Positions 47,107 through 48,014 of a stretch of 64,000 nt of DNA are shown here, piece after piece; positions within the stretch are counted from its first letter, which is position 1, and every line of letters starts with the position of its first letter. The stretch spans positions 13,640,001 through 13,704,000 of the forward strand of contig OZ024764.1 of the NCBI GenBank assembly GCA_964016885.1, read 5' to 3'. A program made the translations under genes and the position numbers. The notes beneath the pieces were generated by a model. That model was not told the DNA's origin. It worked only from the letters and a program-made list of their open reading frames with translations, and searched no databases. The DNA is from Eledone cirrhosa. Lineage: Eukaryota.

Positions 47107-47300
47107 AAAGAAAGATTAATTGATGATGTAAGCGCTCTTTATTTTTGTTTCATATATATATATATGTATATATGAATGTATGTATAGTATATTTGGCAAT
47201 ATACTGTATGTTTAATTAAAAACATTTAGAAGACCATACGCTATCAGTTTTAAAGTAGTGACTATGTCACTTACTTCTTTTCGGCGAAAGAAGGGAGAGA

Positions 47301-47342
47301 AGCCGACCGTATGTTTCACGCTGGTTGGCGTTCATCAGAGCT
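47301..47342 (-). ncRNA. Type I hammerhead ribozyme (tandem unit 1)
   Basis: Minus strand: AGCU-CUGAUGA-ACGC(CAACCA)GCGU-GAA-AC(AUACG)GU-C-GGCU. Confidence 0.85.
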
Positions 47343-47619
47343 ACGTACTCCCCGGCTTTCGCCGAAAATTATAGAAGGTGGATTCTTATAGAATTCCAGT
47401 AATAATCAGGAGCTGATTATACAGAGCGATTGGCGGTCCAGCAAAAATTAGGTATTAGGATTGGTGCTCTGCTGAAATAACGATGTATACATGAATGTAT
47501 GTATAGTATGTTCGGCAATATACTGTATGTTTAATTAAAAACATTTAGAAGACCATACGCTATCAGTTTTAAAGTAGTGACTATGTCACTTACTTCTTTT
47601 CGGCGAAAGAAGGGAGAGA

Positions 47620-47661
47620 AGCCGACCGTATGTTTCACGCTGGTTGGCGTTCATCAGAGCT
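47620..47661 (-). ncRNA. Type I hammerhead ribozyme (tandem unit 2)
   Basis: Identical to 47301-47342 and 319 bp away. Confidence 0.85.
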
Positions 47662-48014
47662 ACGTACTCCCCGGCTTTCGCCGAAAATTATAGAAGGTGG
47701 ATTCTTATAGAATTCCAGTAATAATCAGGAGCTGATTATACAGAGCGATTGGCGGTCCAGCAAAAATTAGGTATTAGGATTGGTGCTCTGAAATAACGAT
47801 GTATACATGAATGTATGTATAGTATGTTCGGCAATATACCCTATGTTTAATTAAAAACATTTAGAAGACTATTCGCTGGAAGAAATCTGCTGTATTGAGA
47901 CCTGGAGTGAAGATGGGCTCGGCCAGGCTTAAAAGGGGCCCAAGAAATGTCGTATGTCATTATCACTTCCATACGATTCCCTCTGGGGATACAGGATCAT
48001 GTATACATACATAG

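Follow-up and report, generated by a model that had tools for sequence, protein, structure and literature searches.

The closest described counterparts of the repeat reported here are the non-LTR retrozymes of coral, mussel and axolotl, for which Penelope elements have been named a strong candidate mobiliser (PMC7229834). Like them, the family that we describe consists of tandem monomers of a few hundred bases with low GC content, a type I hammerhead ribozyme in every unit and no open reading frame (ORF), and it is dispersed and lies beside Penelope elements. Unlike them, it has a lineage-specific sequence and is known from the genome alone, whereas cleavage and circles have been demonstrated for the earlier examples. 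A study of 35 genomes (31 vertebrates, three insects and one anthozoan) argued from co-occurrence and pseudo-LTR homology that vertebrate retrozymes are Penelope-derived, favoured local tandem expansion, and found that one of nine predicted dimers cleaved in vitro (10.64898/2026.07.22.740005). Our family would resemble the Xenopus and other vertebrate retrozymes of that study as a non-autonomous Penelope passenger of similar monomer size; the evidence differs, consisting here of insertion anatomy and haplotype-uniform arms, with no homologous pseudo-LTR found among the loci examined. In the portions of both papers considered here, the way in which animal retrozymes move and the enzyme that moves them are proposed rather than demonstrated. 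Newt satellite 2, likened here by description and not by sequence, also has a type I hammerhead, in a tandem repeat of ∼330 bp, and cleaves as a dimer via an elongated helix III (PMC6155905); it differs from our family, which is dispersed as short two-armed insertions.

Penelope-like elements with a GIY-YIG endonuclease form the second point of comparison. Their copies bear an inverted partner and a one-sided tail (10.1101/2021.04.23.441226), and in the anole element Poseidon PAc the tail lies between two internal reverse-transcription start sites and cutting and extension occur on both strands of AT-rich DNA (PMC11167929). Shared with such elements are a hammerhead upstream of two internal reverse-transcription starts (putative in our family), a 30- to 40-nt tail on one end, an inverted 5′-truncated partner, AT-rich or microsatellite targets and a palindromic stem III, the form that cleaves as a dimer (PMC6765202, PMC6155905). 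Unlike them, our family has no ORF, its whole element is the repeating monomer, and its ribozyme is not of the minimal form, having a complete stem II and an extended stem I clamp. As to cephalopods, the portion of a giant squid paper considered here counts 235 hammerhead loci and offers no analysis of them. Our literature search, covering mainly the main texts of open-access papers, found no such family reported among cephalopod hammerheads or retrozymes.

Here, we analysed a 64,000-nucleotide stretch of the genome of Eledone cirrhosa (assembly GCA_964016885.1, contig OZ024764.1, positions 13,640,001 to 13,704,000), hereafter the window, in which an initial annotation had read a tandem array as a retrozyme.

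The tandem array and its hammerheads

Tandem Repeats Finder delimits the array at 47164-47877 with a period of 319, 2.2 copies and 97% matches, in agreement with the ∼2.2 near-identical head-to-tail units first annotated. Its parts, and those of its junctions, are as follows.

47878..47990, plus strand: sequence next to the 5′ junction, from a different dispersed repeat, of which it has the 3′ part and lacks the 5′ part
47164..47877, minus strand: insertion of family A, read as a retrozyme, one arm (5′-truncated unit, full monomer and terminal partial unit)
47624..47877, minus strand: 5′-truncated upstream unit, from about unit position 63-71 to the unit end, stopping at the first predicted cut (C17 = 47624)
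47305..47623, minus strand: full monomer of 319 nt, bounded by the two predicted cut sites, GC 39.5%
47164..47304, minus strand: terminal partial unit, positions 1-141, with the short 3′ end of the family, abutting (TA)n
47151..47163, no strand: (TA)n target tract at the 3′ junction
47453..47482, minus strand: "tail" segment bounded by the two 3′ ends of the family (putative reverse-transcription start sites)
47620..47661, minus strand: hammerhead 1, with CUGAUGA at 47657-47651, stem II at 47650-47637, GAAA at 47636-47633, a variant 2-bp stem III at 47633-47625 and C17 at 47624
47301..47342, minus strand: hammerhead 2, identical in sequence to hammerhead 1, with core at 47338-47332 and C17 at 47305
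47597..47609, minus strand: clamp helix arm at the monomer 5′ end, with 47675-47687 as its partner in the precursor and 47356-47368 as its expected partner once the monomer is excised
47356..47368, minus strand: clamp helix arm at the monomer 3′ end, which pairs with 47278-47290 in the precursor

The annotated unit length of 319 bp applies to the middle unit. The upstream unit is 316 nt in register, as is the family at large, and the difference is a CAG insertion (47472-47474) private to the middle unit. A 17-nt core of the tail segment is common to sister families. The dispersed repeat at the 5′ junction is, we presume, SINE-like.

As annotated, the array has no sizeable coding capacity: no ATG-initiated ORF of at least 40 aa lies within 47164-47877, and one 41-aa ORF (47847-47972) merely touches the array end. 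Folding of the monomer as a circle, a check proposed with the annotation, gave an energy 7 SD below that of 40 dinucleotide shuffles (z = −7.0). The array thus combines low GC content (39.5%, under the 45 to 50% bound of retrozymes) and a self-paired, non-coding monomer with a head-to-tail arrangement of monomers within the 150- to 450-bp range of retrozymes.

Both hammerheads are of type I and on the minus strand, with CUGAUGA (at 47657 and 47338), a 4-bp stem II, GAAA and GUC. They had been called canonical, which holds for the core, GAAA, GUC and the cuts at 47624 and 47305, but stem III has only 2 bp and a 5-nt loop. Likewise, the perfect 13-bp complement between 47278-47290 and 47356-47368 is present as described, but 47278-47290 lies beyond the second cut and cannot close the monomer; the helix that would close the excised monomer is that of 47597-47609 with 47356-47368. 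An Rfam scan of the window copy at gathering thresholds returned no match.

The window contains further hammerheads and repeats. A separate type I hammerhead at 47053-47150 on the plus strand (core at 47065, GUC at 47103) stands tail to tail with the array across (TA)n, and its relatives occur at loci L182 and L134. Two minimal plus-strand hammerheads with a palindromic ATATAT-type stem III, at 19430 and 37575, are ends of other dispersed families, with 96 to 97% matches in L242, L189, L142 and L088. At 46826-46935, flanked by (TA)n tracts, lies a long inverted repeat with near-perfect arms; it is similar to sequence flanking L091 and L190 and is probably a back-to-back pair of another Penelope-type end. 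Lastly, positions 9499-19198 hold a 9.7-kb array of a 24-bp unit in 408 copies with 94% matches.

A dispersed family with a covarying fold

A genome search with the array returned at least 113 matches on many contigs (40 of 3,002 candidates scored), and the closest other copy among the matches listed is 94% identical. Genome-wide, an exact cut-site motif gave 529 matches and one internal to the unit gave 975, while the reversed controls gave 0. The family, here called family A, has a monomer of 316 nt and a mean divergence of 4.6% (273 segments, filtered at 86% identity), from which, together with the motif counts, we estimate roughly 1,500 to 2,500 arms. In three public runs (contigs of one sample of unrecorded kind), depth was high and the variant letters of the window copy were rare.

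These counts bear out the dispersed family that the initial annotation had proposed, by means other than its own. The short match at 23879-23907 on which it relied does exist (25 of 29 positions, E = 4e-4), but it is antisense, belongs to the end of a different mini-hammerhead element and may be due to chance. The copy number and tandem organisation for which a genome-wide survey had been suggested are those of a multicopy, ORF-less tandem family on many contigs, and a single local duplication, the contrary outcome then envisaged, does not describe it. The element at 23879-23977 is itself a minus-strand mini-hammerhead element that carries the short match antisense at its end, with relatives at L040, L190 and L191.

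Conservation of the fold was assessed on eight hand-picked sequences, two of family A and six relatives, the sister families having been met among the loci examined. In this alignment, 92.8% of cells pair, and both sides change in 17 of 25 pairs, including 9 of the 13 in the clamp. Slid structures pair in 35 to 45%, and none of 500 shuffles reaches the observed value, a count that is not a probability, since the structure was drawn from the same, related sequences. The core C3-G8 pair is U-A in four of the eight. In family A (ACAG-A-CUGU), in the young sister family B described below (ACGCGU) and in most relatives, stem III forms a palindrome or comes close to one, and 65 of 139 family A domains keep the core, a 3-bp stem III and NUH. 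Judging by these alignments, the ribozyme fold is under selection. Because hammerhead and clamp covary across the eight related sequences, we class the array with high confidence as a non-LTR retrozyme. Additional sister families were seen at L049, L221, L235, L242 and L214, and four aligned relatives have U3-A8 as core pair in place of C3-G8.

Insertion anatomy

We sampled 94 family A arms by an internal motif on contig C1. Their 5′ ends are scattered and their 3′ ends are not: 52 lie at positions 126-142 and 27 at 165-178, mostly running into (TA)n, so that the family has two fixed 3′ ends ∼30 nt apart. The 3′ junctions fall within (TA)n or similar tracts, where target-site duplications, longer than 4 bp in retrozymes when present, are unreadable. 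Among 54 back-to-back pairs of arms, 31 were classifiable (the other 23 were set aside for having an end outside both classes), and 27 of the 31 combine one short with one long end (binomial p = 2e-5). Family A thus shows 5′ truncation with an inverted partner at an AT-rich or microsatellite target. The words "inverted" and "rolling" are absent from the main text of PMC7229834, and copies here bear both tail and back-to-back marks; a literature search covering mainly the main texts of open-access papers found no report of such marks in retrozymes.

The ends also bear on the template. The predicted cut site is crossed by 71 of the 94 arms, no arm starts at positions 1-2 and 3 start at positions 3-5, and no indel starts at the cut bond in 139 copies. 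A cleaved linear monomer was therefore rejected as the main template. Read-through of the cut site, taken with the lack of starts at positions 1-2 and of indels at the bond, implies a continuous template, either a circle or an uncut multimer. Family A arms are short and mostly cross the cut once or not at all; 13.7% of variant sites are common to the inverted arms of one insertion, versus 3.1% between sites, a fainter form of the haplotype uniformity described below for a sister family. A shortening of arrays with age is weakly indicated (Spearman 0.35, p = 0.10).

Haplotype-uniform arrays of a young sister family

The strongest evidence on rolling-circle copying comes from sister family B, 71% identical to family A, rather than from family A. 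Family B has a monomer of 310 to 312 nt and 19,121 hammerhead matches, counted by exact sequence patterns. It is young, with two-armed arrays of up to 27 hammerheads per arm (L195/L035, L226-L232, L255 and L261-L279), and one short and one long end occur in all 25 of 25 two-armed arrays. In 27 arrays, 18 of them picked by a variant motif, 224 full units fall into 15 haplotypes; 200 units have the haplotype of their own array, and the differences of the 24 departing units are confined to single units. Variants outside the selection motif are fixed throughout an array and, if both of its arms contain full units, in both arms. Haplotypes nested in one another, and seeming recombinants such as L263 and L273, are likewise fixed in every unit of their own arrays. 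Two variants that were counted have 2,600 and 820 matches genome-wide and mark sub-lineages, and for these two the idea that such variants are private to one insertion was rejected. Several sub-lineage variants of family B lie at N7, stem II and loop II.

Array-wide fixation of haplotypes implies repeated single-unit bottlenecks, as rolling-circle copying gives, and on the strength of these sequences the haplotype-uniform insertions favour rolling-circle copying of a monomer. Assembly polishing could have flattened arrays, although single-unit differences were retained. The same passenger and Penelope machinery could also have used an uncut linear multimer transcribed from uniform arrays, with circles as by-products or absent. 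This accounts equally well for arms that cross the cut site with no pile-up of 5′ ends, the anole element can do without hammerhead cleavage in vitro, where uncut RNA is the main template (PMC11167929), and arrays that carry sub-lineage variants uniformly over up to 27 hammerheads per arm could be the sources. However, under linear copying with 5′ truncation an array can only become shorter and mosaics should be transmitted, whereas the fixed nested haplotypes and the recombinants need repeated single-unit bottlenecks, and a covarying clamp and core imply selection on end-joining and catalysis. We regard a linear template as unlikely and prefer a circular one.

The window copy as a rare variant

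The window copy departs from its family at the ribozyme. Its variant has 3 exact matches in the genome against 529 of the family type; two are in the window array, and the third is at L061 (G000:C25:13604955), 82 kb off on the same strand, with different flanks and a long 3′ end versus the short end of the window copy. The palindrome of stem III is broken (self-duplex −1.5 versus −6.9 kcal/mol for the family type), for which reason we predict weak cleavage. In its most stable folds the core is buried (−43.0 versus −38.8 kcal/mol with the core held open), as it also is for L025 (−46.1 versus −38.8 kcal/mol). Efficient release from this copy of the 319-nt monomer first annotated seems doubtful. 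The variant stem III at 47625-47635 has the same 11 letters as internal family positions 91-101, and a slip of the template, rather than several point changes, may have produced it.

Seven variant sites are common to the window copy and L061, so the notion that the window's variants are all private was discarded. Since L061 has these seven variants and other flanks, the variant template did move. Another possibility, that a single event produced both loci as its arms and an inversion separated them, was not borne out by the flanks: the upstream flank of L061 is not the missing part of the repeat that flanks the window array. Local hopping and a rearranged pair are both candidate readings of the relation between the two loci.

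The upstream and middle units have four further changes in common that are absent from L061 (at 47513, 47510, 47480 and 47342, by middle-unit coordinates). At the equivalents of 47513 and 47510 the terminal unit is of family type, and at 47524-47525 the middle unit agrees with the terminal unit. The simplest reading of this pattern would be a local duplication or conversion of the upstream and middle units, with an exchange point near 47514-47523, from which the second hammerhead of the window probably arose. The two-hammerhead state of this copy is then probably no direct product of rolling-circle copying. The array is an aged, ordinary and probably weakened copy, being a short-ended arm of a rare sub-lineage.

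These four upstream and middle variants, with the two family-type letters of the terminal unit, make local recombination likely for the window copy alone. Extended to the family, the same process would make it a satellite spread at the DNA level by local duplication and unequal exchange, in which the ribozyme would be a relic and RNA would play no part at present. That leaves the fixed 3′ ends, the short/long asymmetry, the one-haplotype inverted arms, the cross-chromosome dispersal and the covariation unexplained, and for the family it is largely refuted by the pair asymmetry and the haplotypes of the sister arrays. We give it hardly any credence.

Autonomous Penelope elements of the same genome

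GIY-YIG candidates in the genome number 10,597; we scored 150 of them and examined 50 loci, at 49 sites. Autonomous elements with reverse transcriptase and GIY-YIG domains also have two ends behind a hammerhead, at (TA)n. The autonomous ends seen have minimal hammerheads and are unrelated in sequence to family A, and a homologous end on an autonomous element was found at none of the 50 loci. Long open Penelope-type frames, measured stop to stop, occur at L175:3309-6122 (minus strand, 938 codons) and L177:1275-4562 (plus strand, 1,096 codons); both have a reverse transcriptase and a Cys-rich linker ahead of the endonuclease region, and their hammerheads, where seen, are minimal. We take these frames to be Neptune-like.

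The initial annotation had named attachment to a Penelope reverse transcriptase/GIY-YIG ORF as the sign of a tandem pseudo-LTR. No examined copy is so attached, and 0 of 50 GIY-YIG loci end in the unit. The unit could still be the pseudo-LTR of an unsampled autonomous element, with the arrays as its truncated ends, given that autonomous elements have matching tail, inversion and target signatures, that the 50 loci are a small part of the 10,597 candidates and that 24 of 57 Xenopus families have homology to Penelope ends (10.64898/2026.07.22.740005). Against this, family arms longer than one unit always wrap into another unit and not into an ORF (up to 27 times in the sister family), the 94 arms have no common upstream sequence in the 40 nt inspected, and the autonomous ends seen bear minimal hammerheads and sequence unrelated to the unit. 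A GIY-YIG domain is near at one site, L146/L194, where two arms stand back to back and the closer one is tail to tail with the domain. This origin is, in our judgement, very unlikely. A hammerhead behind an ORF at L191 was considered as a link to a partner and rejected, since it sits in a separate palindromic insertion.

The first reading stands in that the tandem family is dispersed, lacks an ORF and conserves a type I hammerhead, and falls as to its opposition of retrozyme and Penelope element. The evidence says that the family is a non-coding passenger of Penelope machinery, to which both names apply.

A model for mobilisation and its meaning

We consider it probable that a 316-nt hammerhead repeat RNA cleaves, circularises and is copied into (TA)n by a Penelope-like reverse transcriptase/GIY-YIG protein acting in trans; the insertion anatomy is observed, and the RNA and enzyme steps are inferred. 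A tandem would be transcribed, and neighbouring hammerheads would pair via their palindromic stem III and then cut. The clamp would keep the monomer ends together for ligation. A Penelope protein would nick both (TA)n strands, and reverse transcription would begin from two internal sites, ∼140 and ∼170 nt past the cut. Copying round the circle would yield two multimer arms joined at their truncated 5′ ends, and later local recombination may shorten or re-duplicate the arrays.

On balance, though with less assurance, we favour the view that a Penelope enzyme has copied ribozyme-made RNA circles by rolling-circle, target-primed reverse transcription and that the genome preserves the record: two arms, two fixed sites and one monomer haplotype per insertion. 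The value of the finding lies in this family-level footprint rather than in the window locus. For the Penelope marks on the copies, the genome's own autonomous elements serve as an internal control, and in the young sister family the bottlenecks of a single monomer have left a footprint that can be counted. How retrozymes are mobilised can thereby be assayed directly, using a defined RNA, candidate proteins and the two start sites predicted here. If the model is true, the recently active sister family, with more than 19,000 hammerheads, and the near-intact Penelope ORFs would supply the parts for mobilising a retrozyme in vitro.
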